A DNA stretch of 64,000 nt from an uncultured Candidatus Saccharibacteria bacterium (GCA_964562615.1 CAZLUD010000002.1:89300-153299); one strand, 5' to 3'; positions 16,330 through 30,940 are shown, counted from the first letter of the stretch. Notes: generated by a model not told the origin, from the sequence alone. Numbers and translations: made by a program.

Positions 16330-19300
16330 ATGTATAGCATTTGGAGCTTTTTCACCCTACACAAGAGCTTTAGCTATCTTGTTCTTGTTACCCTTGTTGC
16401 GTTTGGTTCATACGCACTTGTCACTATCCCTAAGGAATCAGCTCCTGAGGTGCAGATTCCTATTGCCATTGTCTCTGTTGCCCTCCCTGGCGCGTCTGCT
16501 GTTGACATAGAAAAGCTCATAACCAACAAGGTAGAAACCGCACTCAATAATTCACTTGAAGATGTAAAAAAGATCACTTCATCATCGCAAGAAGGGTTTT
16601 CTTCTGTGGTCGTAGAGTTTCTCCCTTCTGCAAATATTGATGACTCCGTTCGTGATGTAAAAGATGAAATTGACAAGGTAAAGCCCGAGCTCCCAGAAGA
16701 CGCAACCGAGCCAATAGTAAGTGATGTTAATTTTGTAAATCAACCAATTATTACCTTTGCTATTGGTGCTGATCTCCCTGATGCTGAGCTTGTTGCACTC
16801 GCCGATGCAGTTGAAGATGAAATAAAAAAGGTTGAGGGAGTATCAGATGTAACCATTGGTGGATACAGAGCACGCGAGACACAAGTTATTGTAAGAAAGG
16901 AGGCGCTTGAAACCTACGGACTACGACTTGTTGATATCATTGGTGGCATTGCGCGTGCCAACAACACCTTTCCTGTCGGTAACATACTAGTAGACTCTAT
17001 TGCCTACAACGTACAGTTTGAAGGTGACCTCAATGACCCTGCGGAGGTAGCAAACATTGCTATATTTCTTCAAGGCGGGCAGCCAGTATATGTACGAGAC
17101 GTTGCTACGGTAGTAGATGGACTAGAAGAGGCTCGAAGCATCTCGCGCATCTCGCTTGATAGCGAGCCATCATCATCTGCCCTTTCCATTCAAGTATTTA
17201 AACGATCGGGAGGTGATATCACCAAAATAACAGACGAAGTTAAAAAGACCCTTGATACATTAAAGAGTGATGGTGGCATACTCAGCGATGCAACCACGCT
17301 TGTAGTATTTGATAATGGTAAAGAGTTAAAGAATGATCTAGTCTCACTTGGCAGCAGCGGTGCGCAGACGGTTGTTCTGGTTATGATTTCTCTTTTTATG
17401 GTGATTGGATGGCGCGAGGCGCTCATTGCTGGTTCTGCAATCCCTCTTTCATTCTTGCTAGCATTTATCGCACTTGAAGCATCTGGTAACACACTTAACT
17501 TTGTCTCCTTGTTTGCCCTTATCCTTGCGGTAGGCGTACTTGTTGACTCAGCTATTGTGATAATTGAAGGCATCAACCGAAACATGCGGTTGGATCCGCT
17601 TTTGTCTAAAAAGGACGCGTCACTTGCCGCCATTAAAGAATTTCATGGTCCTATCACCTCAGGAACACTCACTACCGTTGCGGTGTTTGTCCCTCTCTTC
17701 TTTATCTCAGGTGTAACCGGAGAATTTATCGCGAGTATTCCCTTCACGATTATCTTTGTCCTTATCGCCTCACTTATTATTGCGGTAGCAATTGTGCCGT
17801 TGTTTGCGTCATTATTTTTGACAAGACACGAACCAAGCAAGCTAGAGCTCATACAAGCTGAGTACCAAGAGAAAGTTGGGCGTTGGTACAAACAAAAGCT
17901 TGAATCAATATTAGGCAATCCAAAGCGCGAACGCATAGTCATATGGGGAATCTTGGCAATGTTTTTTGTTGCCATGACACTCCCCATACTAGGACTAGTT
18001 AAGGTAGAGTTTTTCCCTGCGGGAGACAGTGACTTTGTTGTTATTGAGCTTGAGCTCCTAGAAGGATCGCCTCTCTCACAAACAGATATAGAAATGCGAA
18101 AGCTTGAAGAAATACTATACGAGTACTCTATTATAGAGTCATTTGTGATGACTGCTGGCGAATCAAGCGCATTTAGCGGCTCACAATCAGTAAGTGCAGG
18201 GGCAAAATTTGCAAATGCATTTGTCACCTTGAAAAAGGATAGACCAGTTACCTCACAAGAATTTGCTGATGACCTCAGGGCTAAAACTGCTGCAATTGGT
18301 ACGGCTGAGGTGCGTATTAGCCAAGTTGAAAATGGTCCTCCAACCGGCACACCGGTGCTTATCAAATTTTTAGGTGACGACCTAGCTACCCTTGAAGAAA
18401 CCGTGCAAAAAGCTGCAACCATTCTTGAGAATACAGAGGGCTCTGCGGATGTAGTAACCAGCGCTAAAAACGATGGTACACAGTATGTGGTTGAGGTTGA
18501 TCCTGCTAAAGCTAGTGCGCTTGGACTTGATGCATCACTTATTTCTCAAACACTCCGTACTGCGGTAAGTGGTGTAAAGGCAACGTCTATTGTTTCAAAT
18601 GATGAGGATATTGATGTGGTGGTAAAGCTCAACCTCAATACTAACTACATGGATGCGCACGATACCGACCGCACCACAATAGACTCCCTAGGACAAATCT
18701 CAATTCAAACCCCAAATGGTCCAGTACTTCTTGCGTCAGTACTTGAAGTATCACTTGCAAAAAACAACACCGTAATTCAACACGAAAATCTTAAACGGGT
18801 AGTGAGCGTTGGATCACAGCTTGAGTCAGGCGCTAACCTTGTTGAGGTGGTAGCTGCCTTTGAAGAGAAAGTAAAAGAAGAGCTTGTACTGCCACAAGGA
18901 GTAACCATGGTAATTGGTGGTGAAAACGAAGAGAACAATCAAGCATTCACCGAAATGTTTTATGCGCTCATTGTAGGACTCGTGCTTATGCTTGCGATAC
19001 TCGTATTTGAATTTAGCTCATACCGACATGCGCTCTACGTTCTTTCAGTAACTCCACTTGCGCTTATTGGTATCATGATTGGTCTTATGGTGACGGGCAA
19101 GGCACTTTCCTTCCCTACGCTCATGGGCTTTATTGCACTTATGGGTATTGTGGTAAACAACTCAATCATATTGATTGACACCATGAATGCAATGAGAAAG
19201 ACAGACCCAGCAAAGCCAATACGTGATGTGGTACTTGAAGGCTCTGCGTCACGACTTCGCCCCATATTCCTTACCACCATCACCACAGTTATCGGTATGG

Positions 19301-19437
19301 TACCGCTTACCTACGCTGATGCATTATGGTCGCCACTTGCATGGGCAATTATATTCGGTCTTTCATTTTCTGTGGTACTCACTCTTCTTCTGGTACCTAT
19401 TCTCTACGGCAGAAAGCCCGGTGAGCTTGAGAGGTAA
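16330..19437 (+). CDS. RND family efflux permease (AcrB/HAE1-like)
   Basis: 1035 aa with a 12-TM architecture and two large periplasmic loops. Typical AcrB-type motifs are present in TM4 and TM10. Confidence 0.9.
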   Translation: MYSIWSFFTLHKSFSYLVLVTLVAFGSYALVTIPKESAPEVQIPIAIVSVALPGASAVDIEKLITNKVETALNNSLEDVKKITSSSQEGFSSVVVEFLPSANIDDSVRDVKDEIDKVKPELPEDATEPIVSDVNFVNQPIITFAIGADLPDAELVALADAVEDEIKKVEGVSDVTIGGYRARETQVIVRKEALETYGLRLVDIIGGIARANNTFPVGNILVDSIAYNVQFEGDLNDPAEVANIAIFLQGGQPVYVRDVATVVDGLEEARSISRISLDSEPSSSALSIQVFKRSGGDITKITDEVKKTLDTLKSDGGILSDATTLVVFDNGKELKNDLVSLGSSGAQTVVLVMISLFMVIGWREALIAGSAIPLSFLLAFIALEASGNTLNFVSLFALILAVGVLVDSAIVIIEGINRNMRLDPLLSKKDASLAAIKEFHGPITSGTLTTVAVFVPLFFISGVTGEFIASIPFTIIFVLIASLIIAVAIVPLFASLFLTRHEPSKLELIQAEYQEKVGRWYKQKLESILGNPKRERIVIWGILAMFFVAMTLPILGLVKVEFFPAGDSDFVVIELELLEGSPLSQTDIEMRKLEEILYEYSIIESFVMTAGESSAFSGSQSVSAGAKFANAFVTLKKDRPVTSQEFADDLRAKTAAIGTAEVRISQVENGPPTGTPVLIKFLGDDLATLEETVQKAATILENTEGSADVVTSAKNDGTQYVVEVDPAKASALGLDASLISQTLRTAVSGVKATSIVSNDEDIDVVVKLNLNTNYMDAHDTDRTTIDSLGQISIQTPNGPVLLASVLEVSLAKNNTVIQHENLKRVVSVGSQLESGANLVEVVAAFEEKVKEELVLPQGVTMVIGGENEENNQAFTEMFYALIVGLVLMLAILVFEFSSYRHALYVLSVTPLALIGIMIGLMVTGKALSFPTLMGFIALMGIVVNNSIILIDTMNAMRKTDPAKPIRDVVLEGSASRLRPIFLTTITTVIGMVPLTYADALWSPLAWAIIFGLSFSVVLTLLLVPILYGRKPGELER

Positions 19438-19465
19438 TAAATAGTAAAACTTTTTCACTAGTGTT

Positions 19466-19948
19466 TTACTTGTTTGAAGCAAATTTCTTCCACGCCATAG
19501 AAAGACGCAAGGTCTTTCCTCTCACATCAATATAGGTTTTTGAAAGCTCTTCAATGCGAACAGTATTAGCATTTTCTGAAAGAGCAGCGTACAGCTCGAG
19601 GTACACAACCATTTTGTTGCACCCTTGCATTGCCTTCTCAAGGCGCGCAAGCGCTTGTGCATGGTCATCAAAGCGCATGCCGTGTGCCTCGGCTATCATA
19701 AGAGGCGTATTGAGCGCACAGTTTCGCATACCCTCTGTATGAATAAAATGAGGGTCTGGTGTATCGCCAAGCACCTCCTTTTCTACCGCAATAGCGGAGG
19801 TCATAGCAATATGATATATGTCTAGGTCACGAAATGACTTTATATTTTTGCGCGGAATAAATTTTGCCTTTGCACCCCTCACAAACTGTGGTGTGTAGCC
19901 ACTTCTATTACTCTCTCCACCAGAGCTATTCCATTTATGTTCTGTCAT
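19466..19948 (-). CDS. Four-helix-bundle protein (23S rRNA IVS / Avd-like family)
   Basis: The segments 'FRDLDIYHIA', 'MRNCALNTPLMIAEAHGMR' and 'ALARLEKAMQGCNKMVVYLELYAAL' fit the family pattern, in which helix 1 reads F.DL.VW, helix 2 reads RRAA.SI..NIAEG.GR and helix 3 reads FL.IA.GS..ELE. The N-terminal ~35 aa are extra. Confidence 0.55.
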   Translation of the reverse strand: MTEHKWNSSGGESNRSGYTPQFVRGAKAKFIPRKNIKSFRDLDIYHIAMTSAIAVEKEVLGDTPDPHFIHTEGMRNCALNTPLMIAEAHGMRFDDHAQALARLEKAMQGCNKMVVYLELYAALSENANTVRIEELSKTYIDVRGKTLRLSMAWKKFASNK

Positions 19949-19980
19949 ACATTAGTAGTAGTATAGTATCCCTCGTTGTT

Positions 19981-21246
19981 TTATGCGTAGGTTGCCTTGT
20001 TATCTTTTGGAATGGTGGCAACACTACCATCGCGATAATGGATCCTTTTGGTCCGAGTCCTTTGTAGTTTTTTCACAATATGGAGTGGGTAAAACTCATA
20101 ATAGCTCTTTTCGTCAAACCACGCGCACTTGAAGTCTCTAAGGCGTAATCCCGTACGCCGTGATAGCGCAAGCGCGTACCAGGTAAGCTGTTCGACAGGG
20201 CGCTCATTTTCGGCATGTGGCTTGTAGTCAAGGATATGCACAACGCCATTTCTTACCTGCACCAAATCAATGTGCCCAGTCAGTATTGCCGGGAATGGTT
20301 CTACATTTTTATTACCTTTCATGCGTACGTCACCATCTTCAGTAACAGAAAACTTTAGCACTTTTTCAAAATGTATAACATCCTCTTTTTGAATATATAC
20401 GGGGACTTCTGTGGCAATCGTCACCGAATCATTAGCAATAAAAAAACGCTGTAGCTCTTCATGACGCTGTGTATTTTTAGGCACACCTTGAAGGACAAAA
20501 CGAGCAATATGATTTGCATAATTTTCCTTGCCCTTTATAACCACCTCGCTTAAATCAAACTTGCTTCTGACTTCACTCATGCGTGCTCCCTTTTCAAAGT
20601 ATTGGTGTGGGGTGTCGGTCGCAACCGTATCAAGATAATCAAGAAGTCTGGTAAAGGTTTTATTCTTATATTCCTCTAGGAGCAAAATAAGCTTAGGCCG
20701 GTGATACCTGAAGCGGTACAGCTGGCGGTGTGCCAAGGTGGTGGTTTCTACCATGTAAAACTTGACGCCATCTTTCTTCCCCTTCTGTTGCCACAGCGAG
20801 AGAATCTTTTTTGCGTACTTGCGCATACGCTCAAACCGACACAGCTCCTTACTCTGCTCATACCACGATGCTACGGTACGTGCAGCTGGCAACACTCCAT
20901 ATTTCTTTTCTATCACCGCAGGCACCTGCTCACACGCAAATCCAAGATTGACATAGCTAATCGCGTCAAGCACCGCTGGCCACGGATAGGGTGAGCCCTT
21001 CATGGCTCTTCCAGTAAAAGTTTTTCCGCAATCATACTCCCTGCAAATGAAAAGCTGTACCTGCTGATGCTTATTTTGCCGGACCCCTCTCTTTACAAAA
21101 TCCCGACTTTCGCAGTATGGGCAGTTATTTACCGAACGCTCTAGGAATGTGTCTTTAGAGAGTAGGATTGCATTGTCCCTTGTAGAGGGGTTCTCAGTGG
21201 GATTGATAGGATTGTTCTCTTTTTCTTCAGGGCTTTTCATAATCAC
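19981..21246 (-). CDS. InsA-like zinc-ribbon/HTH domain fused to a C-terminal RecB/Cas4-like PD-(D/E)xK nuclease
   Basis: N-terminus 'CPYCESRDFVKRGVRQNKHQQVQLFICREYDCGKTFTG' matches the IS1 InsA-type zinc ribbon (CPxC...V[KR]xG...Q.[YF].C..C..TF), followed by a putative HTH 'GVLPAARTVASW'. The C-terminus has 'GHIDLVQV...VVHILDYK' and 'QLTWYALAL', which correspond to RecB-family motifs II, III and QhxxY. Confidence 0.6.
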   Translation of the reverse strand: MIMKSPEEKENNPINPTENPSTRDNAILLSKDTFLERSVNNCPYCESRDFVKRGVRQNKHQQVQLFICREYDCGKTFTGRAMKGSPYPWPAVLDAISYVNLGFACEQVPAVIEKKYGVLPAARTVASWYEQSKELCRFERMRKYAKKILSLWQQKGKKDGVKFYMVETTTLAHRQLYRFRYHRPKLILLLEEYKNKTFTRLLDYLDTVATDTPHQYFEKGARMSEVRSKFDLSEVVIKGKENYANHIARFVLQGVPKNTQRHEELQRFFIANDSVTIATEVPVYIQKEDVIHFEKVLKFSVTEDGDVRMKGNKNVEPFPAILTGHIDLVQVRNGVVHILDYKPHAENERPVEQLTWYALALSRRTGLRLRDFKCAWFDEKSYYEFYPLHIVKKLQRTRTKRIHYRDGSVATIPKDNKATYA

Positions 21247-21577
21247 TAGCGATAGTCTTGATCAAGTGATGTGGTAGGGCGATAGTATATGAATAAGTAT
21301 ACTCATATCACGAATTCTTCATACCCCCATAGCACGACTATAGGCAATTTCGACATGCTTATACGCTAGTCGTGATATGGATTTGGTACGTTTTTTTGAC
21401 ATATGTCAATGTTTGTGCTTCTTCATTTTTCTTTAATGATATCCTTGAAAGTGCTCGTACTAGTATCTGCTTGCCTACTATTTTTGTATCAAACTGCATA
21501 GGATATACCCTTCCATGTGAGTTGAAGACGTATAAACCCCTCTGTACGTATCCATAGCTTCAGAAGCGCATTCCCAT

Positions 21578-24500
21578 CTATGGTTGAGGCGCCTCTGCTG
21601 GACCCTCATCAGCACCTTCTCCAGCAGACACTATCACGGTACGGGTGCTAGTTGCAGTATTGCCAGTTAGATCCCTCGCTACATAGGTTATGATATGCTC
21701 CATCACTTGTGTGGTATCAATTTGCACCGCGGTGACTTCTGTACCTAGGTAGTACGTGCGAAGGGTGGCGATACCACTATCATCAGTAGCAACAGCGCCA
21801 AGGTCGGCATAACTTTCCCCTACAGTAAGTAGTGCCGGGTTGTTTCCTTGCATGATTATGATCGGTGCAGTGGTATCTGCTGGCAATTCCTCGGGTGTAT
21901 CATCTTGCTCAGTACCCCCAGAATCATCACCAGTTGAGCCATTTTGTGACCCTTCTTCTCTAAGCAAAAGAAGTTCTTGAAGGTCGCTCTCAGTGATGCA
22001 GGTGTCCCCGATACAGAGGCGCTCTTTCACATACACCACATTTGCCGTAAATATATTTATGGTTAGTTCAGTGACTTGCGATAGTACTCTACGCACACTC
22101 TCAACAAACCATGACGGTTCACTACCAGACTGTAGCAGGTCAAAATTACTTTGATGTTCCTTCACTACTGCTGATAGCACCGCGGTTATTTCGGCATAGT
22201 GTACCGAGCGTGGCGAGCCATCGGTGTCACGCGCAACAAGCCTTGGCTCTATGGTTTCTATTTGCTCGGCGATAAAACCAAGTCGAGGCTCGTTAGTGCC
22301 ATTGTATTTAAATGATACTGGTTCAATACCTAATACTATTCTTTTTGCTTCTTCAGTTGTGAGTGTTTCAATATCGTGCTTAAACTGTGCGGATGATACC
22401 GTACAGTTAGAGGTGCCGGTGTTAACCACCATCTCTTTACTTGCAGACAGACACAATGCGGATGGCGTACCCGCTGCCGCGGTTAATCCATTTATTGCAA
22501 CTCCACCCTCAACTGAAAGTTTTTTCCATGGACTCGTCGTCCCGATGCCGACGTTGCCGCTCGAATTTATATTGATACCCCTTACGCTACCGTACCCGTC
22601 CCCACCTGTCGTAATTTGCAAACTATCAGTGGAGTGTAGGTATGAGATAATTCCCGCATATTGGGACGCTCCATCCGAGAAGAAAATGTTCGAGCGGGTC
22701 GCACCGGCAATGGTAACGCCATTGCTACCCGAAGCGGTTCCAATTGTGAGGTTATCAGTGTCTGCGTATGACCATGGACTCGTCGTCCCAATGCCGACGT
22801 TGCCCGTGTTTCTACTTATAAACATATCATCAGTATTTAAATCAGCCCCGCCATAATTTCTTCTGAAAACTAATCCATCAGCAGTAGGGTCATATCCAAG
22901 TCCCACATATGGGACATAACCCACACCATCAAACGAGATATATTCTCCGCTTGCATCATAACCAAATCCCAATTTATGTATTGGCCCCGTCGTCCCAATG
23001 CCGACGTTGCCGCTCGTTGGGTTTAATAATGTATTGTTTCCTTGACTATTTATTTTCAATGGTTTAGACGCCCAGCTTTGTATGTAGTTATAGCTCGCAT
23101 CACTACCAAACGAAAGATTATCAACAGTCTGATTTCTTAACATAAATCCATAGCTTGCATTTGTTCCGTCAGTGGTATTAGCAGCTTGATTTATTGTAAG
23201 CAGGTTTCCTGGCGCCGTCGTCCCAATGCCGACGTTGCCGCCGTTTGGCTGTAATGTGAGTGGTCTGTTCGTCCAACTTACCCCATCTGAAAAAGACTGG
23301 ATGTAGGAGTAATCTCCTGAAGCAGATGCGCCAAGCGCAAGTTCTGAATCTAATGAAGCTGAAAGTATAGAAAGACCAAAGCTGCCTTCTGCTGGAGTAC
23401 CATCTTTAAAAATTTGCAGCTTCTCCTGCGGCGCACTCGTCCCGATGCCGACGTTGCCGTCTGTTTTTACATAGAGACCCGCATTACCAAACTGATAATT
23501 CGTACCATCAAAGTATAGATAATTGCTTGAACTATCACCAAAGTAGTAAGCGCCAGTATTAGATGAACGACGTGCAACAATGTCACCAGCAACGCCTGAC
23601 CCTCCACTGTTGGCACCTACCCGCAGGTAACCGGTAACAAGAGCATTTCCGCTCACCTCAAGCTTCTGATTAGGTGCCGTCGTCCCGATGCCGACGTTGC
23701 CGTTCGTATCTATTCTGACCTTTTCCGTTCCCGTCGTAACAAACGCCAATTCTGTCTGAGAAGAATTGTTGTGAATACCATAAATGCCGGAAAATTGATT
23801 TGCCCCGGCGTCCATATTAAACGTCAAACCCAAATGTGCGTAAGTCCCGTTACCTGCCGCTAATCCCGTGTCCAACGCTATCCCTTTATTCTTTGACCCA
23901 GTCGGAGTAAACGCAGCGTTCTGATAATCGCTCGTAACATACAATTTGGAAGCCGGACTCGTCGTCCCCACCCCCACATTCCCCGTCGCTCTGTACACAT
24001 TGCCACCAGAGAGGGTCCAGTTCCCCACCGTGGCACCAGCAACAAGCGCACCATTCCAGTAGAGGGAGGAGGCATTGTTGTATAGGCGGTTGGTGGTAGC
24101 AAGAGGAGTGGATGAGGCAAGGAAGAGTGAACCAGTCACTGAGGCATCTCCAGAAACTGAGAGCGTACTCCAGGGGGTGGTGGTACCAATACCAAGATTG
24201 CTTCCGGTGAAAGAGAAGAGAGGGGTGGTTGCGATTTGTTTTGAAGCGTTAGTGAAGAGGACTGAAGAGGGAGATTGGGTAGCGAGGGTGGTGGTACCAC
24301 TAAGGACAGAGAGTGTGGAGGTGCCGGTAGCGGTGTATCCCACAATGGTGGGGTTGTTGAGAGTGACAGACGAGAGAGAACCACCGGTGATGGTAGGGTT
24401 TGTGATGACGGCAGAGGGTATCTGCACTCCCACAGAGAGGTTGTCTATCTTCTGGGTGAGTCCCCAGACGGGAGTCGAGGGTGGCTGGTATGAGGAGTAG

Positions 24501-25531
24501 GTGCCATAGCCGGTGAAGGTAGTGGCGGTTTGTGTGGGGAGAGTGTTTAGTTTTGTGGTGAGGAGAGCAAGAGATGATTCGAGGAAGGAGATGCGACTCA
24601 AGAGGTCGGTGTTGTTTGCTTCTATGGTGATGTACTCTGGGGTCACCACTCGTTCAACCACTCGTGTTGGTGCTTGTGGAGGGAGAGGTGTGGGAGCAGA
24701 GCTGGTCTTCTTTTGTGGTACCTGTCCTGCGCTTGTTGAAGGGGTGGGAGGAGTGGTCTCTTTGATGCGCTCTTCGACAGGGACAAAGGTGGTTGGGGTG
24801 GGAGTTGGTGTGACGGGAGTCTCCTCTTCCTTGCAGGTGTTGAGTCCTAGAGTGTTGTTCACAAAGCAGAAGAAAGAGACTGCCGTCTCTGACAGAGAGG
24901 CAGCTCCTAGCTGGGTGGTGTTTTCTTGTGCGAGGAGGTAGATGAGTTCTCCGGTGGTGCTGTCTATTGCCACGCCAAGGGCTTGTGGGATGTTGGTGAG
25001 GGTGGTATCCACTCCTTTGGTGAAGGATTCACCTACCTTGGTATAGGTCTCTTTTGGAGAGAAAGAGAAGAGTGATGTGAAGAAACTGTCTATGTGAGTT
25101 GCTATGGTGTCCTTCACTGAAGGAGGGGTGTCAGAGAGGTATGAAGATGCGCCTGCTACCCATGGAGCAAGGACAAACATGACAATGCAAAAGAGGGTGG
25201 TGCGCATGGTGTGCAAAGAGACGTATGAGGCATCTCGGTGTTCGATTAAGAAATCATCAATCGACATAGTATCAATGAGCTGCTCCTCCGCCACAGAAGG
25301 AAAGCCTGCCTCAACCGCGCCAAGTAGTTTTACCTCACTAAACAAATGCGTAGGAATGAGCTTTCCGGTATGGTCCTTTTGAATAAATCCTGCATCAATA
25401 AGTTTAGTGACTAGTGAAAACGCCGCATTTTTAGATGCATATCCCATAAGGTCTGCTATCTCTCGGTAGCTAGGCATCCGTTTATGGGTGTAGTAAAAAT
25501 CTAGAATCTTTTTTCCTTCTCCTTGTGTCAT
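21578..25531 (-). CDS. Giant membrane/surface protein of 1317 aa. An N-terminal LexA-like DNA-binding domain and cleavage-site linker is followed by a signal-anchor/TM helix, a Pro/Thr-rich stalk, about eight tail-fibre-like 'GNVGIGTT(S/A)P' repeats, a Peptidase-S74 intramolecular-chaperone domain and a DUF5011-like Ig domain.
   Basis: aa 8-108 align with E. coli LexA 5-125. 'MPSYREIADLMGYASKNAAFSLVTKLIDAGFI' matches '[33 protein letters not shown]', 'LLGAVEAGFPSVAEEQ' matches 'LVGRVAAGEPLLAQQH', and 'VSLHTM' matches 'VSGMSM'. The LexA catalytic domain is absent. aa 109-130 'MRTTLFCIVMFVLAPWVAGASS' is a signal-peptide-like segment (nt 25142-25207). The S74-like segment near nt 22148-22393 reads 'FKHDIETLTTEEAKRIVLGIEPVSFKYNGT...RLGFIAEQIETIEPRLV...RSVHYAEITAVLSAVVKEHQ'. 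The Ig-like domain lies near nt 21632-21868. An alternative start at M109 (ATG 25207) would give a conventional secreted protein. Neither start has a clear SD. Confidence 0.7.
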   Translation of the reverse strand: MTQGEGKKILDFYYTHKRMPSYREIADLMGYASKNAAFSLVTKLIDAGFIQKDHTGKLIPTHLFSEVKLLGAVEAGFPSVAEEQLIDTMSIDDFLIEHRDASYVSLHTMRTTLFCIVMFVLAPWVAGASSYLSDTPPSVKDTIATHIDSFFTSLFSFSPKETYTKVGESFTKGVDTTLTNIPQALGVAIDSTTGELIYLLAQENTTQLGAASLSETAVSFFCFVNNTLGLNTCKEEETPVTPTPTPTTFVPVEERIKETTPPTPSTSAGQVPQKKTSSAPTPLPPQAPTRVVERVVTPEYITIEANNTDLLSRISFLESSLALLTTKLNTLPTQTATTFTGYGTYSSYQPPSTPVWGLTQKIDNLSVGVQIPSAVITNPTITGGSLSSVTLNNPTIVGYTATGTSTLSVLSGTTTLATQSPSSVLFTNASKQIATTPLFSFTGSNLGIGTTTPWSTLSVSGDASVTGSLFLASSTPLATTNRLYNNASSLYWNGALVAGATVGNWTLSGGNVYRATGNVGVGTTSPASKLYVTSDYQNAAFTPTGSKNKGIALDTGLAAGNGTYAHLGLTFNMDAGANQFSGIYGIHNNSSQTELAFVTTGTEKVRIDTNGNVGIGTTAPNQKLEVSGNALVTGYLRVGANSGGSGVAGDIVARRSSNTGAYYFGDSSSNYLYFDGTNYQFGNAGLYVKTDGNVGIGTSAPQEKLQIFKDGTPAEGSFGLSILSASLDSELALGASASGDYSYIQSFSDGVSWTNRPLTLQPNGGNVGIGTTAPGNLLTINQAANTTDGTNASYGFMLRNQTVDNLSFGSDASYNYIQSWASKPLKINSQGNNTLLNPTSGNVGIGTTGPIHKLGFGYDASGEYISFDGVGYVPYVGLGYDPTADGLVFRRNYGGADLNTDDMFISRNTGNVGIGTTSPWSYADTDNLTIGTASGSNGVTIAGATRSNIFFSDGASQYAGIISYLHSTDSLQITTGGDGYGSVRGININSSGNVGIGTTSPWKKLSVEGGVAINGLTAAAGTPSALCLSASKEMVVNTGTSNCTVSSAQFKHDIETLTTEEAKRIVLGIEPVSFKYNGTNEPRLGFIAEQIETIEPRLVARDTDGSPRSVHYAEITAVLSAVVKEHQSNFDLLQSGSEPSWFVESVRRVLSQVTELTINIFTANVVYVKERLCIGDTCITESDLQELLLLREEGSQNGSTGDDSGGTEQDDTPEELPADTTAPIIIMQGNNPALLTVGESYADLGAVATDDSGIATLRTYYLGTEVTAVQIDTTQVMEHIITYVARDLTGNTATSTRTVIVSAGEGADEGPAEAPQP
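22534..24205 (-). repeat. Intragenic tandem repeats of ~225-245 bp (8 units) encoding the GNVGIGTT(S/A)P motif
   Basis: The near-identical 24-nt core CGTCGTCCCAATGCCGACGTTGCC recurs at 22534, 22780, 22988, 23216, 23436 and 23678. Diverged copies occur at 23956 and 24182. Confidence 0.85.
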
Positions 25532-25544
25532 GGGCTTAGTATAC

Positions 25545-25558
25545 TGAACGAACGTTCA
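25545..25558. promoter_or_regulatory. SOS-box-like palindrome (GAAC-N4-GTTC, Cheo-box type) in the divergent promoter of the LexA-domain gene
   Basis: TGAACGAACGTTCA lies 14 nt upstream of the ATG of the LexA-like ORF, immediately next to the self-complementary AGTATACT (a TATACT -10-like hexamer on both strands). Confidence 0.5.
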
Positions 25559-25589
25559 CTATACAACTGTGGATAAGTAGCAGCCCATT

Positions 25590-25844
25590 TTGCTGAGTAT
25601 TCCACTCGATTCCCTTGCTCAATATGAGAGACGTGCCACACTAGAGGTATTACTCAATAAGCTATGTAATCGTATGGGAGAACATTATGTATGTACGGGC
25701 GGTTGTGAAGGAGTATCACCAAAGCAAACAACATGCGGAGCACCCGAGTGTCCAAAGCACGACACCCCCCTTACCGCTTGTTCATGTGTTGATGGTATGC
25801 ACCTAGAGGCATACGAAAAAGATGAAAAGGATGGGGCAATGTAA
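25590..25844 (+). CDS. Small Cys-rich hypothetical protein (7 Cys in 84 aa)
   Basis: Contains 'CTGGCEGVSPKQTTCGAPECPKHDTPLTACSC'. It is divergent from the giant gene. Confidence 0.4.
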   Translation: MLSIPLDSLAQYERRATLEVLLNKLCNRMGEHYVCTGGCEGVSPKQTTCGAPECPKHDTPLTACSCVDGMHLEAYEKDEKDGAM

Positions 25845-25864
25845 CATTTGGTATACTCTTATAT

Positions 25865-26431
25865 ATGATACTGACTACGAAGCAACAGCTCTTACTTGGA
25901 TTATTAGTGATTATTGGGATATTGGCAATTGTATTCTACTTTCCAGGTCCAAAGACGTGGCTCGAAAAAAAGCTTAACAAAAAACCTGATAGTGCGATCA
26001 CTACCTTTGAAGAATGCGCAAAGTACTATCCGGTTCTTGAGTCATATCCAGAGAGATGCTCTACCAAAAGCGGCGCATCTTTTACAAGAGACATTGGTAA
26101 TGAACTAGAAAAAGCAGATCTCATCAAAAGTACTACCCCTCGCCCAGGAGACACTATAATGAATCCACTTGTCATAGAGGGAGAGGCACGTGGGTATTGG
26201 TTTTTTGAAGCGACTGCGCCTGTTGAGTTGTACAACAATAGTGGAGTACAAATAGCGAGCGGATACATTGAAGCGCAAGGCGAATGGATGACTGAAGACT
26301 TTGTGCCGTATACCGGAACACTCGACTTTCCACCTGCAGCCTCTGGTAGTGGCTACCTCCTTATCAAAAAGGCAAATGCTTCTGGACTACCAGAGCATGA
26401 TGACTCACTTAGCATTCCGGTAGTCTTTTAA
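25865..26431 (+). CDS. Membrane-anchored protein with a Gmad2-type Ig-like domain
   Basis: N-terminal TM helix LLLGLLVIIGILAIVFYF. The segment 'PLVIEGEARGYWFFEATAPVELYNNSGVQIASGYIEAQGEWMTEDFVPYTGTLDF' resembles the GerMN/Gmad2 Ig-like fold. Confidence 0.5.
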   Translation: MILTTKQQLLLGLLVIIGILAIVFYFPGPKTWLEKKLNKKPDSAITTFEECAKYYPVLESYPERCSTKSGASFTRDIGNELEKADLIKSTTPRPGDTIMNPLVIEGEARGYWFFEATAPVELYNNSGVQIASGYIEAQGEWMTEDFVPYTGTLDFPPAASGSGYLLIKKANASGLPEHDDSLSIPVVF

Positions 26432-26433
26432 CC

Positions 26434-27087
26434 ATGAGCAAAAAGACACTACACAACGCTATCGCTATTGTTTCTTCACTTGTATTTGTGTACCTGATGT
26501 GGTCAGGCTCAATCACCCTTACCGAGGACACCACAAAGGAACCGCTCCATGACCAAGGTGCCGTAGTTGCAGAATACGCAACCACACCCGATGAGGCAGA
26601 AGAAGACACTACTTTTGCCCCCACTACGGTGAGTGAGGCCTCATTTCCAAAAATCACTACCGTCATGCGCGTAATAGATGGCGATACGTTTGTAGTATCT
26701 ATGAATGACAAGCCGGTAACTGTACGACTCTTAGGAATAGACACCCCTGAGACAGTACATCCAAATAAACCAGTTGAATGCTTTGGGAGAGAGGCATCAG
26801 AATATCTTACCTACCTCATTAATCAGCACGAGCTAGTGTTGGTTCTTGATCCTACGCAAGGCGCCTATGATAAATACGGCAGACTACTTGCGTATGCGTA
26901 TCTTCCTGATGGACGAAGCGTAAATGAGATACTACTACGAGATGGTTTTGCGTATGAGTACCTGTACCAAACCCCCTACGAGTTACATGATAGGTACGTT
27001 GCTATAGAACAAAAGGCAATTGATGCAAAACGAGGCTTGTGGGCAGAAGGTGTGTGTCAACAAGAAGAATCGTTAGAGGTACAATAA
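26434..27087 (+). CDS. Membrane-anchored thermonuclease (staphylococcal nuclease homologue)
   Basis: TM anchor followed by the SNase core 'VIDGDTFVVSMNDKPVTVRLLGIDTPE' and 'YGRLLAYAY...NEILLRDGFA'. Confidence 0.85.
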   Translation: MSKKTLHNAIAIVSSLVFVYLMWSGSITLTEDTTKEPLHDQGAVVAEYATTPDEAEEDTTFAPTTVSEASFPKITTVMRVIDGDTFVVSMNDKPVTVRLLGIDTPETVHPNKPVECFGREASEYLTYLINQHELVLVLDPTQGAYDKYGRLLAYAYLPDGRSVNEILLRDGFAYEYLYQTPYELHDRYVAIEQKAIDAKRGLWAEGVCQQEESLEVQ

Positions 27088-27091
27088 TCAC

Positions 27092-27325
27092 ATGACAAAT
27101 TTCAGCGACATCACCATACTAGACATATTTGGCACCTCGCCTATGGGAGCTGCCTTTAATATTGTGGCATTTGTATTTGTGGTGTTTAGCTTGTTGTTTG
27201 TATATCACCTGACTAAATACAGTGTCGGCAATGCCGTCATGAGTACCGCGCTTCTTGTATATTTTGGCGTAGCAGGGTTTCTTTTTTTTGTACTCATCAT
27301 TAGTATGTCCAGTATTGCATCATGA
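27092..27325 (+). CDS. Small 2-TM membrane protein
   Basis: 77 aa and hydrophobic. It overlaps the downstream gene by 4 nt. Confidence 0.35.
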   Translation: MTNFSDITILDIFGTSPMGAAFNIVAFVFVVFSLLFVYHLTKYSVGNAVMSTALLVYFGVAGFLFFVLIISMSSIAS

Positions 27326-27939
27326 TACATTTAGGCCCCGATGAAAGAATAATAACCACCGCGCGCAAACATATATTTGTGCTCATTGGTGAATTGTTAC
27401 CAGTCGGTGTACTTCTTGCTGTGCCCTTTCTGGTACTTCCCTTTATTCCTGAATCAGTGTCACTCTCTCGCTTTATTCCTTCTGAAGAAGAAATAATTGT
27501 GGCAGTGTCCATCGATAATGCGGTTATAGTATTTAGCCTTGCGATATGGACATTGCTGTTATGGATGCGAATGTTTTGGATATGGATCGACTACTATCTT
27601 GATGTATGGATAATTACCAATCATCGATTAATCGATATTGAGCAAAAGGGATTTTTTAACAGAAATGTTGCCAATGTTCGACTTGATTTTATACAAGATG
27701 TTACCTACGAGATACGCGGTGTTATCGCCTCACTATTAAATTTTGGCAGCATCGAGATACAGACAGCCGGAGAAACACGCCACTTTACCCTCCACGGTGT
27801 CTCCCACCCAGAAAGATTGCGTGATACGTTGGTACAAATAAAAGCTGAAGAGAAGAAAGGAGTATCGGGGGTAAGCGGAGTTGAGTTTGAAGAGGATGAT
27901 GAATTCAATCGAATGATTAACCGTGATGTGGATGAATAG
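27322..27939 (+). CDS. Membrane protein with a bacterial PH domain (YdbT/DUF304-like)
   Basis: Two TM helices followed by 'YLDVWIITNHRLIDIEQKGFFNRNV...IEIQTAGE'. Confidence 0.6.
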   Translation: MIHLGPDERIITTARKHIFVLIGELLPVGVLLAVPFLVLPFIPESVSLSRFIPSEEEIIVAVSIDNAVIVFSLAIWTLLLWMRMFWIWIDYYLDVWIITNHRLIDIEQKGFFNRNVANVRLDFIQDVTYEIRGVIASLLNFGSIEIQTAGETRHFTLHGVSHPERLRDTLVQIKAEEKKGVSGVSGVEFEEDDEFNRMINRDVDE

Positions 27940-28684
27940 CATCTTCTAGAGTAAGGTCGCCTACTTTTGTACGCACAATACTAAATGCAAGCGCAGGCAC
28001 ACCAAGCGCGTCCCCTATCTCCTTTACCAGCTCTCGCATATAGGCTCCACTACCGCACGTCACGATGATTTCAGCAAGAGGAAACGTTTTGTTCGATAGC
28101 TTTCTGAGAGTGTCGTCCCAAACTGCTTTAATTTTTTCTTGTCTAAAGTCTCCGGTAACACGTGCGCAAGCGGCATCAACTAGTGACTGTATGTCTTGCA
28201 CCCCAATCGAAGAAGATGCGGTAAGGGTTATAGAGTTGATGGTAATTGTATGCGTAGGCAATTCTACTTGAACACCATTTCTTCCGTATTCATGGAGCTG
28301 CTTGCCCTCAACTGTTTTTGAAGAAAAGAGTGGATATGATTGCTCACGAGTCCCTACTAAACCATTAAGCACAGAAAGAAGTGTGACGAGTGATGGTGCT
28401 GATACCTGCTCTACCTTTTCTAATACACCAAGGACATCAGCAGTGTCTGTAGAAAAGCCAAAGAGTATCTGCACTCGATATTCCTTTGGAAGTGCTGTTA
28501 TCGTGTCTTTCTTGTGTACTGCTTCTCCAAAAAGGATTGGTAGTACTCCCTCAGCAAGTGGATCAAGCCTCCCTGCGTATGTTGCCTTAATATCTGCATA
28601 CTCGGGGTGCAATTGCACATACGCATGAAGACACTCTTTTGGCGTCTCGAATCGCTCTTTGTATAGGTTCACCATATTGTCCAT
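27917..28684 (-). CDS. truB: tRNA pseudouridine(55) synthase TruB
   Basis: Catalytic 'GRLDPLAEGVLPILFGEAVHK' and C-terminal 'CGSGAYMRELVKEIGDALGVPA'. The start is set at the internal Met (MDNMVNLY) because the longer ORF would overlap hisS. Confidence 0.8.
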   Translation of the reverse strand: MDNMVNLYKERFETPKECLHAYVQLHPEYADIKATYAGRLDPLAEGVLPILFGEAVHKKDTITALPKEYRVQILFGFSTDTADVLGVLEKVEQVSAPSLVTLLSVLNGLVGTREQSYPLFSSKTVEGKQLHEYGRNGVQVELPTHTITINSITLTASSSIGVQDIQSLVDAACARVTGDFRQEKIKAVWDDTLRKLSNKTFPLAEIIVTCGSGAYMRELVKEIGDALGVPALAFSIVRTKVGDLTLEDAIHPHHG

Positions 28685-28706
28685 ATTTGCTACAATGAAC
28701 CTCATC

Positions 28707-30023
28707 ATGAAAGAAAACGCAAGCCACATAAGCAAAGAGCCATACAAGGGGGTAAGAGATTTCTATCCTGAGGATATGCGCGTTATGCGATATATCACCG
28801 AAGTGATGCGTACAAGCGCTGAAGCCTTTGGCTACGAAGAATACACCGCCTCGGTACTTGAAAGCGCAGAACTGTATGAAGCAAAAAGCGGAGAAGAGAT
28901 GGTAACTAACGAAACCTATACCTTTATTGATCGTGGTGAACGGCGTGTTACCCTTCGCCCTGAAATGACCCCTACCGTGGCTCGCATGATAGCTGCCAAG
29001 CGCAAGGAGCTTATGTTTCCACTACGCTGGTACTCTATACCTAACTTGTTTAGATATGAACGTCCACAACGTGGCCGTCTTCGAGAACACTGGCAACTAA
29101 ATTGCGATTTGTTTGGAGCTAAAAGCATTGCCGCTGATGCAGAAATACTGCTTCTTGCCTCTACCATCATGAAAAAGTTTGGTGCCAAAGAAGAGGATTT
29201 TGAAATTCGCATCAACCATCGAAGTCTCATGAACTCACTCTTTGATGATGTGCTATCTCTAGAGACAGATGCTCGCTACAAACTTGCAAAACTTCTTGAT
29301 AAAAAAGAAAAAATATCCAAAGAAGAATTTCTTAATGAGCTCACGGTACTTATCCCAGAAAAAGCAACCATGCTCAGTCATATGCTTGAAGCAAAAACAC
29401 TTGATGAGTTTTTGCAACATTCACCACTTCTTAGCTCATCAGAAGGTGCGCAGGATGTTCTTTCATTACTTGCACACCTCAGCACTCTCTCACTTCATAA
29501 TGTACGATTTGTACCTACCCTCATGCGTGGCTTTGACTACTACAACGGCATGGTCTTTGAGGTGTTTGATACCAATCCAGAAAACAGACGCTCTATTTTT
29601 GGTGGAGGAAGATATGATCACCTTGTAGACATATTTGGGGTAGAGAGTGTTCCTGCTGTTGGATTTGGCATGGGTGATGTCACTATTGCTGATTTTTTGA
29701 CTACGCATGATTTGCTTCCGGCATTCTCATCAGCACATCAATTGTATATTGCCACCGTTACCGAAGGAGATATTGCTTTTGCACACACCCTTGCAACAAA
29801 CCTAAGAGCAAGCGGGATCAATGTGTTGGTAAATGTCACCAACAAAAAACTAGGCGAGCAAGTATCGTACGCAGCAAAAAAATCTATCCCATTTGTGCTC
29901 ACCGTAGGAGAAAACGAACGTGCGCAACACGCCTATCCGCTTAAAAATATGCTCACCAAAGAAGAGTGTGTGGTATCAATAGAAGACGTTGCTTCCCTAT
30001 TACTCAATACAACCACCAACTAG
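28707..30023 (+). CDS. hisS: Histidine--tRNA ligase
   Basis: 'KGVRDFYPEDM', 'RYERPQRGRLREHWQ', 'GGGRYD', and a C-terminal anticodon-binding domain. The start is taken at MKEN. Confidence 0.9.
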   Translation: MKENASHISKEPYKGVRDFYPEDMRVMRYITEVMRTSAEAFGYEEYTASVLESAELYEAKSGEEMVTNETYTFIDRGERRVTLRPEMTPTVARMIAAKRKELMFPLRWYSIPNLFRYERPQRGRLREHWQLNCDLFGAKSIAADAEILLLASTIMKKFGAKEEDFEIRINHRSLMNSLFDDVLSLETDARYKLAKLLDKKEKISKEEFLNELTVLIPEKATMLSHMLEAKTLDEFLQHSPLLSSSEGAQDVLSLLAHLSTLSLHNVRFVPTLMRGFDYYNGMVFEVFDTNPENRRSIFGGGRYDHLVDIFGVESVPAVGFGMGDVTIADFLTTHDLLPAFSSAHQLYIATVTEGDIAFAHTLATNLRASGINVLVNVTNKKLGEQVSYAAKKSIPFVLTVGENERAQHAYPLKNMLTKEECVVSIEDVASLLLNTTTN

Positions 30024-30024
30024 T

Positions 30025-30603
30025 ATGCGAAAGGTGGTATTTGATATTGAGACAAAAAATATTTTTTCTGATGTTGGAAAAAACGACCCAACGCTTCTTG
30101 ATATTTCGATGCTCTGCGCGTGGGATTCAGAGACAAATGAGTTTACGAGTTATCTTGAAGAAGAATTACCTAAACTCTGGCCACTCCTTGAACGGGCAGA
30201 TATGCTTATTGGCTATAATAGCGACCACTTTGATATTCCGCTCCTTAACAAATATTATCCGGGTGACCTAACGCATATTAAGAGCCTCGATATCCTCAAA
30301 GAGATTCAAAAATCATTTGGGCGAAGACTTAAACTAGATGCCATTGCAGAGGCGACACTTGGTATTGGCAAAAGTGGTCACGGCCTTCAGGCATATGAGT
30401 GGTGGAAGCAAGGTGAAATAGAGAAAATAAGAAAGTACTGCATAGACGATGTAAAAATAACCAGAGACGTGTACGACTACGCACGCAAACACGGGTACGT
30501 TAAATACAAGGACTTTGGAGAAACTAAAAAAATACCTCTCGATACAAGCCATTGGGAAGAGCCTACTGACAATGGTGCCATGACCCACACCTTGCCATTT
30601 TAG
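30025..30603 (+). CDS. DEDD-family 3'-5' exonuclease (RNase-H-like fold)
   Basis: Exo I 'VVFDIET', Exo II 'GYNSDHFDIPLL', Exo III 'YCIDDVKITRDVY'. The start is taken at MRKVVF, immediately after the hisS stop. Confidence 0.6.
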   Translation: MRKVVFDIETKNIFSDVGKNDPTLLDISMLCAWDSETNEFTSYLEEELPKLWPLLERADMLIGYNSDHFDIPLLNKYYPGDLTHIKSLDILKEIQKSFGRRLKLDAIAEATLGIGKSGHGLQAYEWWKQGEIEKIRKYCIDDVKITRDVYDYARKHGYVKYKDFGETKKIPLDTSHWEEPTDNGAMTHTLPF

Positions 30604-30624
30604 ATAATTAAAAAGCCAACGATC

Positions 30625-30650
30625 AGGACCCCCGTTGTAACGGGGGTCCT
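30625..30650. terminator. Bidirectional rho-independent terminator
   Basis: AGGACCCCCGTT/AACGGGGGTCCT hairpin between convergent genes. Confidence 0.7.
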
Positions 30651-30655
30651 ATATA

Positions 30656-30940
30656 TTACTGTTTATACTTTTCAAGAAGTTCCAATACTGCACTAAGAAC
30701 TTTGAGGATTTCCGGTGGAAGTTCTTTTGCCTCAAGGGCTATTGCTAGTAAATCAGGTAGATGCAAAGTCAAGATTTGCTTTGCGCATTCAAGTGACTTT
30801 GCCTCTGTCACATTAAATTCGTAACGCAAAACACTCGAAAAATATCTCATCATCACATCTAGATATGCTTTGGTGTTCCCTTCCGCTGGCATTACTGGCA
30901 TCGCGATACTCCTCACGGTTAGCTCGAGGTAATATGCCAC
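30656..30940 (-). CDS. Hypothetical cytoplasmic protein of 94 aa
   Basis: Open ORF downstream of uppP. No motif. Confidence 0.4.
   Translation of the reverse strand: MAYYLELTVRSIAMPVMPAEGNTKAYLDVMMRYFSSVLRYEFNVTEAKSLECAKQILTLHLPDLLAIALEAKELPPEILKVLSAVLELLEKYKQ

Follow-up and report, generated by a model that had tools for sequence, protein, structure and literature searches.

A LexA–surface-fibre chimera in a Paceibacteria-like bacterium: probably a young accident of chromosomal rearrangement

A single uninterrupted reading frame of 1317 codons, located on the minus strand of the 64,000-nucleotide window (the whole stretch of DNA analysed) from a Paceibacteria-like member of the Patescibacteria, was found to join the 5' half of a lexA gene to a giant gene for a secreted surface fibre. 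With a probability of about 0.85, this frame represents a young, accidental, strain-level chimera that arose by chromosomal rearrangement, and in which the LexA part is a remnant rather than a selected regulatory module. On that reading, the fusion is an accident, and not a new kind of membrane-bound regulator. The frame as a single 1317-residue unit, and every domain listed for it in a prior sequence-only reading, were recovered in the course of the analysis, the relevant features being as follows.

25558–25563, minus strand: -10-like hexamer TATAGT of the lexA promoter, placed by upstream alignment
25546–25557, no strand assigned: SOS box GAAC-N4-GTTC, which in relatives forms the central part of a 26-nt palindrome
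21578–25531, minus strand: chimeric ORF of 1317 aa (lexA' plus surface-fibre gene), an uninterrupted frame
25221–25531, minus strand: lexA-derived part, comprising codons 1–103 and the first two bases of codon 104, with the winged helix, linker and Ala-Gly site; the DNA match to intact lexA, as carried by contigs L077 and L005, stops at 25221
25298–25315, minus strand: Ala-Gly site VEAG/FP, aa 73–78, placed by alignment
25208–25220, minus strand: retained surface-gene leader of 13 nt (C TCT TTG CAC ACC), from junction alignments against L077, L005, L002 and L001
25148–25207, minus strand: native start M109 and signal peptide MRTT-LFCIVMFVLAPWV-AGA/SS, now internal (aa 109–128), with the A-x-A motif read from the sequence
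24662–24832, minus strand: Pro/Thr/Ser-rich stalk, aa 234–290, then the family motif RVVERVV, in the same order in proteins P0029, P0038, P0096 and P0098
22505–24205, minus strand: eight GNVGIGT(T/S)xP repeats, aa 443–1009, at a spacing of 207–282 nt, from a repeat search
22235–22396, minus strand: Peptidase_S74 intramolecular-chaperone domain, aa 1046–1099 (Pfam match, E = 7e-8)
21629–21853, minus strand: C-terminal Ig-like domain (PF16403/DUF5011), aa 1227–1301 (Pfam match, E = 3.3e-8)

When the first 134 residues were scanned alone, the lexA profile TIGR00498 was matched by residues 16–103 (E = 2.4e-6; profile positions 22–116 of 203), the score of 27.3 bits lying under the cut-off of 110.95, as expected of what is only half a protein; residues 74–104 matched the UmuD cleavage region (E = 0.0012), and the match to Pfam LexA_DNA_bind was sub-threshold (E = 0.011). 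Relatives supplied far stronger evidence: residues 1–104 were 95% identical to a related genome's intact LexA and agreed at 104/104 positions with the LexA of conspecific strains, with VEAG/FP invariant in an alignment with seven LexA proteins. A phmmer search of 1.84 billion representative proteins with full-length LexA as the query returned the ORF as third-best match (E = 2.6e-52, residues 1–104); of the 150 best LexA relatives, it was the sole long protein and the sole long fusion.

The LexA winged helix, linker and Ala-Gly site proposed previously were accordingly borne out; of the ~108 residues then aligned to LexA, residues 1–104 stood and the remainder did not, both protein and DNA homology ending inside codon 104, before the GDSM serine. 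The Thr formerly assigned to the position of LexA Ser119 (T108) is thus not homologous to it, since relatives read VLTVKGDSM at this point, and 'SLHTM' represents the leader plus start codon of the other gene, the 13 nt of leader now supplying the last base of codon 104, followed by codons 105–108 (SLHT). No match to Peptidase_S24 (PF00717) was detected in a Pfam scan of the ORF, the catalytic and dimerisation domain with its Ser/Lys dyad being absent. Relative to established LexA proteins (TIGR00498; PF01726 + PF00717), the chimera therefore shares the winged helix, linker, Ala-Gly site, GAAC-N4-GTTC operator and promoter, but has no S24 domain, runs on into an unrelated secreted protein, and has lost its Y-family polymerase operon partner from the locus.

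The part from M109 onwards follows the pattern typical of Patescibacteria 'tail fiber domain-containing' surface proteins, with the same order of parts as the giant CPR proteins of that name (PF13884 + PF16403/DUF5011): signal peptide, P/T/S linker, V(I/V)ER(V/I), NPTITGG, GNVGIGT repeats, S74 with Ser...Lys, and Ig. The hydrophobic signal-like segment previously placed at aa 109–130 corresponds to the sole hydrophobic segment of the protein (aa 111–131), and the stalk, eight repeats, S74 and DUF5011 domains of the same account were all recovered. The repeats matched phage tail-fibre PHROGs (E = 2.9e-20 and 2.6e-15); the S74 match to PF13884 covered profile positions 1–57 of 58 with 33.1 bits against a Pfam gathering score of 22, and the Bact_surface_Ig-like/DUF5011 match reached 33.9 bits against 27. 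By eye, the S74 dyad motif S1046-S-A-Q-F-K1051 ('SSAQFK') aligned with the SDERLK, SDARLK and SDQRLK of the family, such that the Ser and Lys of S-D-x-R-x-K are retained, five residues apart, but its Asp and Arg have given way to other residues. A weak match (E = 0.024) was also obtained to 6f45, the chaperone domain of a phage long tail fibre. As with the giant gene of relatives, the chimeric gene is convergent to an RND pump gene, although the fibre sequence is only about 30% identical to its positional counterpart in those relatives, which indicates a hypervariable locus. However, whereas the signal peptide of full-length family members starts right at residue 1, that of the chimera is internal, behind a cytoplasmic-type extension of 108 residues, and the gene has lost its own fibre promoter and leader.

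An identical junction was present in six other assemblies (L079, L080, L081, L082, L084 and L086), which indicates that it is not an artefact of assembly. The frame was open in all seven fusion assemblies, with no stop codon between the LexA-like segment and M109, and its 5' part ran without interruption through 497, 308 and 312 codons in the independent contigs L080, L084 and L086; a protein identical to the whole chimera (P0020) is on record from a 237 kb NCBI contig. The notion that assembly or binning had brought together halves from different places or organisms drew on the ORF being a singleton cluster in the protein database, and on two exact-pattern scans of metagenome contigs that returned nothing. 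Those empty scans were false negatives, because the scanned collection did not include the pattern-bearing JGI contig, and with the same junction recovered through different pipelines (JGI, NCBI, Logan), three other assemblies extending 0.6–1.2 kb beyond it, and both flanks confirmed by the conspecific contigs L076 and L004, an assembly chimera is refuted and retains a negligible probability.

The distribution of the fusion was narrow, being confined to a lineage >99.6% identical, within which it was nevertheless the commoner allele among sampled conspecific contigs (seven assemblies versus two samples with intact lexA). A comparison of related genomes, proposed earlier as a means of distinguishing a fusion from separate genes, located the fusion in this one intraspecific lineage only, and separate, intact lexA genes in conspecifics and all relatives. 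The conspecific contigs L077, L078 and L083 (98.9% nucleotide identity to the window over 25221–37322) carried an intact lexA of 190 codons followed by orf45 and an IMS-family (Y-family) polymerase gene; as far as 25221, the second base of codon 104, their DNA matched that of the window, and beyond this point it diverged abruptly. The relatives L005, L006, L007, L001 and L002, with lexA intact in each, were likewise collinear over window positions 35537 to 25221. Neither the 3' half of lexA nor the polymerase gene was found within the 64-kb window.

On the far side of the junction, the conspecific contig L090 matched the window up to 19432, and a lineage-specific segment could be delimited between the RND pump gene stop and lexA codon 104, in which the surface gene is accompanied by two further genes.

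19433–25220, no strand assigned: fusion-lineage-specific segment of 5788 nt; L090 matches the window to 19432, and L077 from 25221
19981–21246, minus strand: 421-aa transposase-like protein, combining a zinc-binding N-terminus of the IS1/IS1595 type with a PD-(D/E)XK nuclease domain
19466–19948, minus strand: 160-aa partner gene of the 421-aa gene, from neighbourhood comparison

Beyond 19432, L090 presented a different surface-gene allele after the RND pump gene, without the 160-aa and 421-aa genes. Of 65 loci with a homologue of the 421-aa gene, 25 had the 160-aa gene immediately downstream of it, and homologues of the 421-aa protein were scattered over bins of CPR, DPANN and Omnitrophota. 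Neither terminal repeats nor target duplications were found to mark the 5.8-kb segment.

In the nearest sequenced relative (GCA_964409035.1), a single contig carried lexA on the plus strand at about 61 kb, and the RND pump gene with its convergent giant gene on the minus strand from 181 to beyond 186.6 kb, so that the two loci, on opposite strands, were separated by at least 125 kb and their fusion requires an inversion, a deduction made from a relative at 79% nucleotide identity. The sign of the GC skew changed between the two loci in that relative and was uniform across the junction in the window, the pattern expected of an inversion spanning the origin or terminus. Such an inversion would be the simplest origin of the fusion. 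It would have acted on an autoregulated lexA–orf45–Y-family polymerase operon and on a giant secreted S74/Ig fibre gene, convergent to an RND pump gene, at a distance of at least 125 kb, cutting lexA between the second and third bases of codon 104 and joining it to the sequence that starts 13 nt before the fibre ATG; the event may have been tied to the transposase-like cassette beside the fibre gene, and the in-frame join would be a matter of chance. The reciprocal junction (fibre promoter, lexA codons 104–190 and polymerase gene) would lie outside the window and was not found. Known chimeras resulting from origin/terminus inversions or mobile elements share with this one the two breakpoints in unrelated loci, within-species polymorphism, preserved GC skew and a transposase-like neighbour; the present case differs in that breakpoint repeats were not detected, and that, through an in-frame join, a complete secreted-protein gene of 1209 codons now follows the promoter, operator and initial 104 codons of a repressor gene.

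Since both arrangements occur within one species and a transposase-like gene lies nearby, a programmed, reversible inversion was also considered, by which phase variation would alternate an intact lexA with an SOS-promoter-driven fibre gene; three Logan contigs ending exactly 30 nt past the junction hint at a second sequence leading into the fibre 5' end in those samples. However, the breakpoint showed neither inverted repeats nor a shared core sequence, identity to intact lexA ended abruptly, no sample held both lexA states, and contigs were unbranched through the lexA side. The two arrangements were moreover found on different SNP backgrounds (1.1% apart) with different fibre alleles, which argues for clonal inheritance over switching. 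Phase variation is very improbable.

The young-rearrangement reading bears directly on how the chimeric gene is now expressed. The SOS box (GAACGTTCGTTC) lies 14 nt upstream of the lexA ATG, at the same position as in L005, L001, L002 and L077, and its GAAC-N4-GTTC pattern occurs nowhere else in the window. The -10-like hexamer, TATACT in every lineage with an intact lexA, differs from that of the conspecific L077 by a single C-to-G change at 25559, and the conserved operator-flank palindrome carries a mutation at one base, in the fusion lineage only. The lexA promoter, short leader and AUG were otherwise intact in the fusion, and of the same form as in functional lexA genes.

It could be argued that, the origin being the same, the fibre is made from M109 only, lexA' persisting untranslated or irrelevant as an in-frame pseudogene remnant. 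M109 is the native start in the architecture of the family, and internal AUGs would be usable in principle because the genome initiates without Shine-Dalgarno sites (present at 6 of 44 genes). Set against this are the intact lexA promoter, leader and AUG, and the absence of any stop between that AUG and M109, such that any ribosome starting at lexA makes the chimera; in addition, no -10-like box was found upstream of M109, and the GC content of the 25 nt preceding it was atypical (52%), since 30 other ATG starts averaged 36% and just one of these reached so high a value. Initiation at M109 alone is for these reasons unlikely today, albeit the most credible of the alternatives; the fallback previously offered, an in-frame LexA remnant before a native start at M109, holds as an account of origin and probably fails as one of current translation.

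According to the preferred reading, the rearrangement would have destroyed LexA and left the SOS-box promoter driving the fibre gene, without its normal repressor because LexA' lacks the S24/dimerisation domain. Ribosomes entering at the lexA AUG would read on into the fibre gene, the old signal peptide (aa 109–128) would serve as an internal signal-anchor that keeps the N-terminus within the cell, and the ectodomain would be exported through the Sec pathway. Cleavage by signal peptidase after A-G-A128 would then yield the same mature fibre as before plus a 128-aa LexA stub in the membrane, which would explain why the accident has been tolerated; the chimera probably matures to a normal fibre via its now-internal signal peptide.

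A functional membrane-tethered SOS-type regulator would require instead that the LexA N-terminal domain bind GAAC-N4-GTTC while held by a trimeric fibre, as a non-cleavable repressor of the ToxR/MYRF type maintained under selection. This is very improbable, even though its N-terminal domain is 100% identical to that of a working LexA, its own operator and promoter are kept, an N-in topology is compatible with the residues on either side of the hydrophobic segment as read from the sequence, and the allele occurs in seven assemblies with the frame open. The low dN/dS of the lexA' branch (15 synonymous and two non-synonymous substitutions, with no excess of amino-acid changes) might appear to favour selection, but is attributable to the youth of the lineage, lexA' differing from the conspecific intact allele by only two nucleotides, both synonymous; the LexA part may still be under selection, although the fusion lineage is too young for its decay to be visible. 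The restriction of the fusion to so recent a lineage, amongst conspecifics and relatives that all retain an ordinary LexA, the want of any second long fusion among the 150 best LexA relatives, and the mutated operator-flank base all weigh against a regulator. LexA dimerisation runs through the C-terminal domain, which is the part missing here, whereas the fibre is expected to be trimeric, and the A-x-A signal-peptidase site would split the two halves.

Comparison with the eukaryotic precedent leads to the same result. In MYRF, a conserved architecture, the order is DNA-binding domain, chaperone domain and transmembrane segment, the first two being cytosolic, and cleavage frees a trimeric DNA-binding domain. 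The chimera likewise combines a DNA-binding domain, a transmembrane segment and an S74-type trimerisation domain with predicted self-cleavage, but its transmembrane segment (aa 111–131) lies between LexA' (aa 1–104) and S74 (aa 1046–1099), which would place S74 outside the cell, where its cleavage would be unable to release LexA'. Unlike MYRF, it is also a strain-level accident, with separate genes in conspecifics at 98.9% identity, and the evolved MYRF-like membrane-bound transcription factor favoured by the sequence-only reading is consequently not upheld. With ToxR/CadC-type regulators, the unprocessed chimera would share the predicted topology of a cytoplasmic winged helix, single transmembrane segment and extracytoplasmic C-terminal domain; those regulators, however, form conserved families with OmpR-type DNA-binding domains and sensor ectodomains, whereas the chimera has a LexA-type domain followed by a signal peptide of the cleavable type with an A-x-A site.

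A Pfam scan of the open reading frame, a scan of residues 1-134 alone and analysis of the sequence itself gave the following layout.

21578-25531, minus strand: a single open frame without interruption, 1317 aa
aa 16-103: match to positions 22-116 of the 203 in the NCBIfam lexA equivalog, E 2.4e-6 (aa 1-134 scanned alone)
aa 74-104: match to the UmuD cleavage region (aa 1-134 scanned alone)
aa 111-131: hydrophobic segment, the only one in the ORF
aa 234-290: P/T/S-rich stalk
repeats of the GNVGIGT type: eight
aa 1046-1099: Peptidase_S74, E 7e-8, over the gathering score
aa 1227-1301: PF16403 (DUF5011-type Ig domain), E 3.3e-8

The anatomy proposed in the sequence-only reading was correct, the LexA profile at the N-terminus, the S74 domain, the Ig domain, the eight repeats, the stalk and the single hydrophobic segment all being recovered. 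Searching PDB sequences with aa 1-134 yielded no LexA structure and only a chance match to BrxA (E 0.18), and exact look-ups of the 1317-aa product returned no record, yet the protein is present in the clustered database (P0020).

The database matches to aa 1-240 were all ordinary LexA proteins of 170-196 aa with Peptidase_S24, the best 89% identical, and each of them covered only the first ~104 residues. As this word-index search missed the ORF itself, it was not used to judge the absence of other fusions; an exhaustive phmmer search with full-length LexA against 1.84 billion representative proteins was used instead, and among its best 150 matches the chimeric ORF was the only protein longer than 325 aa. 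The alignment is near-perfect as far as ...HRDASYV, after which the relatives continue LTVKGDSM..., with the S24 serine, and the window SLHTMRTTLF.... Nucleotide similarity to five related contigs ends at window position 25221 or 25212, and the threonine previously placed at the position of LexA Ser119 therefore does not occupy a homologous position. 'CACACCATG' was also considered as a diverged form of the lexA sequence 'GACTCCATG' (GDSM), which would imply a 9-nt deletion plus replacement of Ser by Thr; this reading was rejected because the intact conspecific allele matches exactly as far as 25221 and shows no relationship beyond it. Since the S24 domain is absent, the ORF fails as a member of the LexA family.

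From M109 onwards, the ORF has the layout of the giant 'tail fiber domain-containing' proteins of Patescibacteria. Five full-length CPR members of this family (P0029, P0038, P0042, P0096 and P0098) begin directly with the signal peptide, which is followed by an A/P/T/S-rich linker, V(I/V)ER(V/I), NPTITGG, the repeats, an S74 domain with an SDxRxK-type start, and the Ig domain. Read from the sequence, MRTT-LFCIVMFVLAPWV-AGA|SS comprises the n-, h- and c-regions of a signal peptide plus an A-x-A site, and the S74 serine and lysine are retained as S1046 and K1051. Given this shared layout and family members that start at the signal peptide, M109 is the native start of the fibre gene. The ORF carries both the S74 and the DUF5011 domain and, from M109 onwards, probably belongs to the CPR surface-fibre family, extended at its N-terminus by accident. 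The repeat region of the fibre gene (22562-23434) was compared with positions 732-1515 of the conspecific contig L004, and the middle proved unrelated between L004 flanks 99.7% and 96.7% identical; the L004 gene is called as a 715-aa fragment (P0021), and either the repeat cassettes are hypervariable or L004 is mis-assembled within the repeats. Window positions 24001-25000 show a local GC peak of 0.545 and a strong positive GC skew (+0.38), an effect of Pro/Thr-rich stalk coding on the minus strand rather than a compositional island boundary.

Conspecific contigs were retrieved by exact look-up with a neighbouring 77-aa protein, and six of them carry the same junction. Three, L079 (SRR12762285; 100% identical over 12.1 kb), L081 (SRR21875703) and L082 (SRR8640622), extend 30 nt past it, while L080 (JGI 3300043411), L084 (SRR35185575) and L086 (GCA_020049755.1) extend 0.6-1.2 kb past it and keep the chimeric frame open over 497, 308 and 312 codons, respectively. 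The segment 15379-24166 was confirmed by L004 and L076, which are contigs from further samples. An assembly chimera is excluded by the recurrence of the junction in other samples' contigs and by this coverage of the flank. Exact-pattern scans of metagenome contigs with the junction and with the signal-peptide region gave no matches; these were false negatives, the pattern being present in the JGI contig. The three shorter contigs, all from Logan but from different runs, stop exactly 30 nt (k-1 for k=31) past the junction, at 25191, which suggests that in those samples another sequence also runs into the 5' end of the fibre gene; the lexA side shows no branching, and L084 continues across the point.

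Comparison with conspecific strains established how far the fusion is distributed. In three contigs from SRR13076504 and SRR13076505 (L077, L078 and L083), which match window 25221-37322 at 98.9% identity, lexA is intact (190 aa), and orf45, the IMS gene, Big_13 and further genes come after it. All 104 of the 104 shared residues of the conspecific LexA are identical in the window ORF, with two nucleotide differences, both synonymous, and the two sequences diverge after ...GCCTCATACGT. On the other side, conspecific contig L090 (97.7% identical to window 6331-19432) diverges exactly at the stop codon of the RND pump gene, beyond which lies the 3' end of a different fibre allele, like that of the relative L073, without the 160-aa and 421-aa genes. 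Taking these two points of divergence together, 19433-25220 (5788 nt) is a segment specific to the fusion lineage. The fusion is not a conserved architecture, close conspecifics having an intact lexA and the ORF being alone of its length among the best 150 LexA matches. Nor does the suggested parallel with MYRF extend to mechanism: the window ORF has its transmembrane segment between the DNA-binding domain and S74, and the architecture is not conserved. A literature search found no relevant publication.

The event is of a known kind, a chimeric ORF made by rearrangement, and it is real, reproducible and very young. A seemingly unprecedented domain architecture in a MAG can thus be real and recur in several assemblies although, on an evolutionary scale, it arose a matter of days ago, and it is comparison with conspecific strains, not domain analysis, that decides such cases. 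No new class of system is involved; the remaining interest lies in the promoter swap and in the documentation, in an uncultured Patescibacteria species, of a lineage that is naturally lexA-null and whose fusion arrangement appears to be the commoner among sampled contigs.

Four relatives (L001, L005, L006 and L007) share the gene order TruB, bPH_2, a small ORF, SNase, Gmad2, a small Cys-rich ORF and a divergent lexA (190-191 aa), followed by the IMS (Y-family polymerase) gene, Big_13, HisKA and so on. The window is collinear with the relatives from 35537 down to lexA codon 104, and neither the 3' half of lexA nor the genes downstream of it in the relatives occur within the window. A GAAC-N4-GTTC SOS box, set in a 26-nt palindrome 14 nt 5' of the lexA ATG, is shared by the window and the relatives, and this is its single occurrence in the window. 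A single rearrangement breaks the lexA/Y-family-polymerase operon and sets a giant surface-fibre gene behind an SOS-box promoter. In strains with intact lexA, namely L077 (6337-8441) and the relative L005 (10001-12114), lexA, a 45-aa ORF and the IMS gene are tightly packed with one SOS box 5', apparently a minimal SOS operon in this Patescibacteria group.

The relative GCA_964409035.1 suggests how the junction may have arisen. On one and the same contig it carries lexA on the plus strand at ~61 kb, and the RND pump with a convergent giant S74/Ig gene on the minus strand, from 181 kb to past the contig end at 186.6 kb. Because the two loci lie on opposite strands of one contig, joining the 5' part of lexA to the 5' end of the giant gene would require an inversion of at least 125 kb, in a model inferred from a relative with 79% nucleotide identity and with a reciprocal junction outside the window. 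In the relative, GC skew has opposite signs at the two loci (positive at lexA, negative at the RND pump), and in the window it is uniformly negative on both sides of the junction, as expected of an inversion that includes the origin or terminus. The reciprocal junction would, by symmetry, place 'lexA-orf45-polymerase behind the fibre gene's promoter; the phmmer search with full-length LexA against the 1.84 billion representative proteins returned no C-terminal lexA fragment from such a junction.

The lineage-specific segment contains a two-gene module (19466-21246) made up of the 421-aa gene, whose product has an IS1/IS1595-type zinc-binding N-terminus (E 4.6e-6) and a PD-(D/E)XK domain (E 4e-5), and its 160-aa partner, the resemblance of which to a diverged four-helix-bundle (rRNA-IVS/Avd-like) protein was by eye, with no profile match. 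Homologues with up to 47% identity are patchily distributed in CPR, DPANN archaeal and Omnitrophota bins (loci L008-L072), and neither conspecific L090 nor relative L073 has the module. In 25 of 65 loci the 421-aa homologue is followed immediately by the 160-aa gene, and a giant gene of the GNVGIGT/S74 type is directly upstream on the same strand in at least 15, the contig often starting inside it. The giant gene with its two neighbours may therefore form a mobile three-gene cassette that possibly took part in the rearrangement; no terminal inverted repeats or target duplications were found at the ends of the 5.8-kb segment.

Substitution counts over lexA codons 1-104 were 15 synonymous and 2 non-synonymous on the window branch, and 16 and 4 on the sister branch; the window-branch counts show no relaxation and reflect only the history before the break. 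Two bases separate the fusion allele from the intact one of the conspecific strains, and over 25191-28417 the fusion-lineage contigs do not differ among themselves. So little time has passed since the event that neither decay nor constraint can be measured. SNPs between strains (L077 and L080-L082 compared) are strongly clustered over 25191-31000: the fusion-lineage contigs have none in 25191-28417 and 13-19 in 28418-30000, and L077 has SNP-free blocks at 27000-28000 and 29000-31000, a pattern suggestive of mosaic recombination, or of a sweep, near the junction.

Across the whole window, a Shine-Dalgarno-like core precedes only 6 of 44 genes, and a TATACT-like -10 box lies within 25 nt upstream of 11 of 30 ATG starts; with so many boxes this close to starts, mRNAs of the organism apparently have very short leaders or none. 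The alternative that translation begins at M109 is borne out in so far as that codon is the native start, and is countered by the present context: the fusion lineage has kept the lexA promoter with its short leader and AUG, and M109 has no TATACT-like box, the 25 nt upstream being 52% GC against a mean of 36%. A consensus promoter scan says little on an internal promoter, since it failed to find even that of lexA. With no stop codon between the lexA AUG and M109, ribosomes starting at the former would have to produce the chimera. The charges flanking the hydrophobic segment favour an N-in orientation, and Sec export with signal-peptidase cleavage after A128 would then release the mature fibre of the native gene and leave a LexA stub in the membrane. 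The chimera is also a natural test of signal peptide function behind a folded 108-residue extension.

The roles of the S24 domain and the dimerisation domain in LexA are well established. Lacking them, the LexA fragment has no route to induction by RecA and would probably be an inefficient repressor; the lexA promoter of the fusion lineage is therefore probably constitutive. A retained or new regulatory role for the stub is very unlikely. Equally improbable is a joint reading in which the chimera, translated from the lexA AUG and membrane-anchored, still sits on SOS boxes as a repressor coupled to secretion and non-inducible through loss of the cleavable C-terminal domain, with the Y-family polymerase under a strong fibre-gene promoter, the rearrangement having spread (7 assemblies) because this rewiring is advantageous.

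In the relatives, a perfect 26-nt palindrome, GTATACTGAACGNNCGTTCAGTATAC, overlaps the lexA -10 box (window 25532-25563). A C-to-G change at 25559 in the operator-flank palindrome (TATACT to TATAGT) occurs in the fusion lineage only, the position being invariant elsewhere, and may stem from a loosening of constraint on the operator flank once LexA was lost, or from drift alone. Divergent from lexA, and sharing the SOS-box intergenic region, the plus strand at 25674-25844 encodes a conserved 56-aa Cys-rich ORF (MGEHYVCTGGCEG...CPKH...CSC), which has no Pfam match and is 63-80% identical in relatives.
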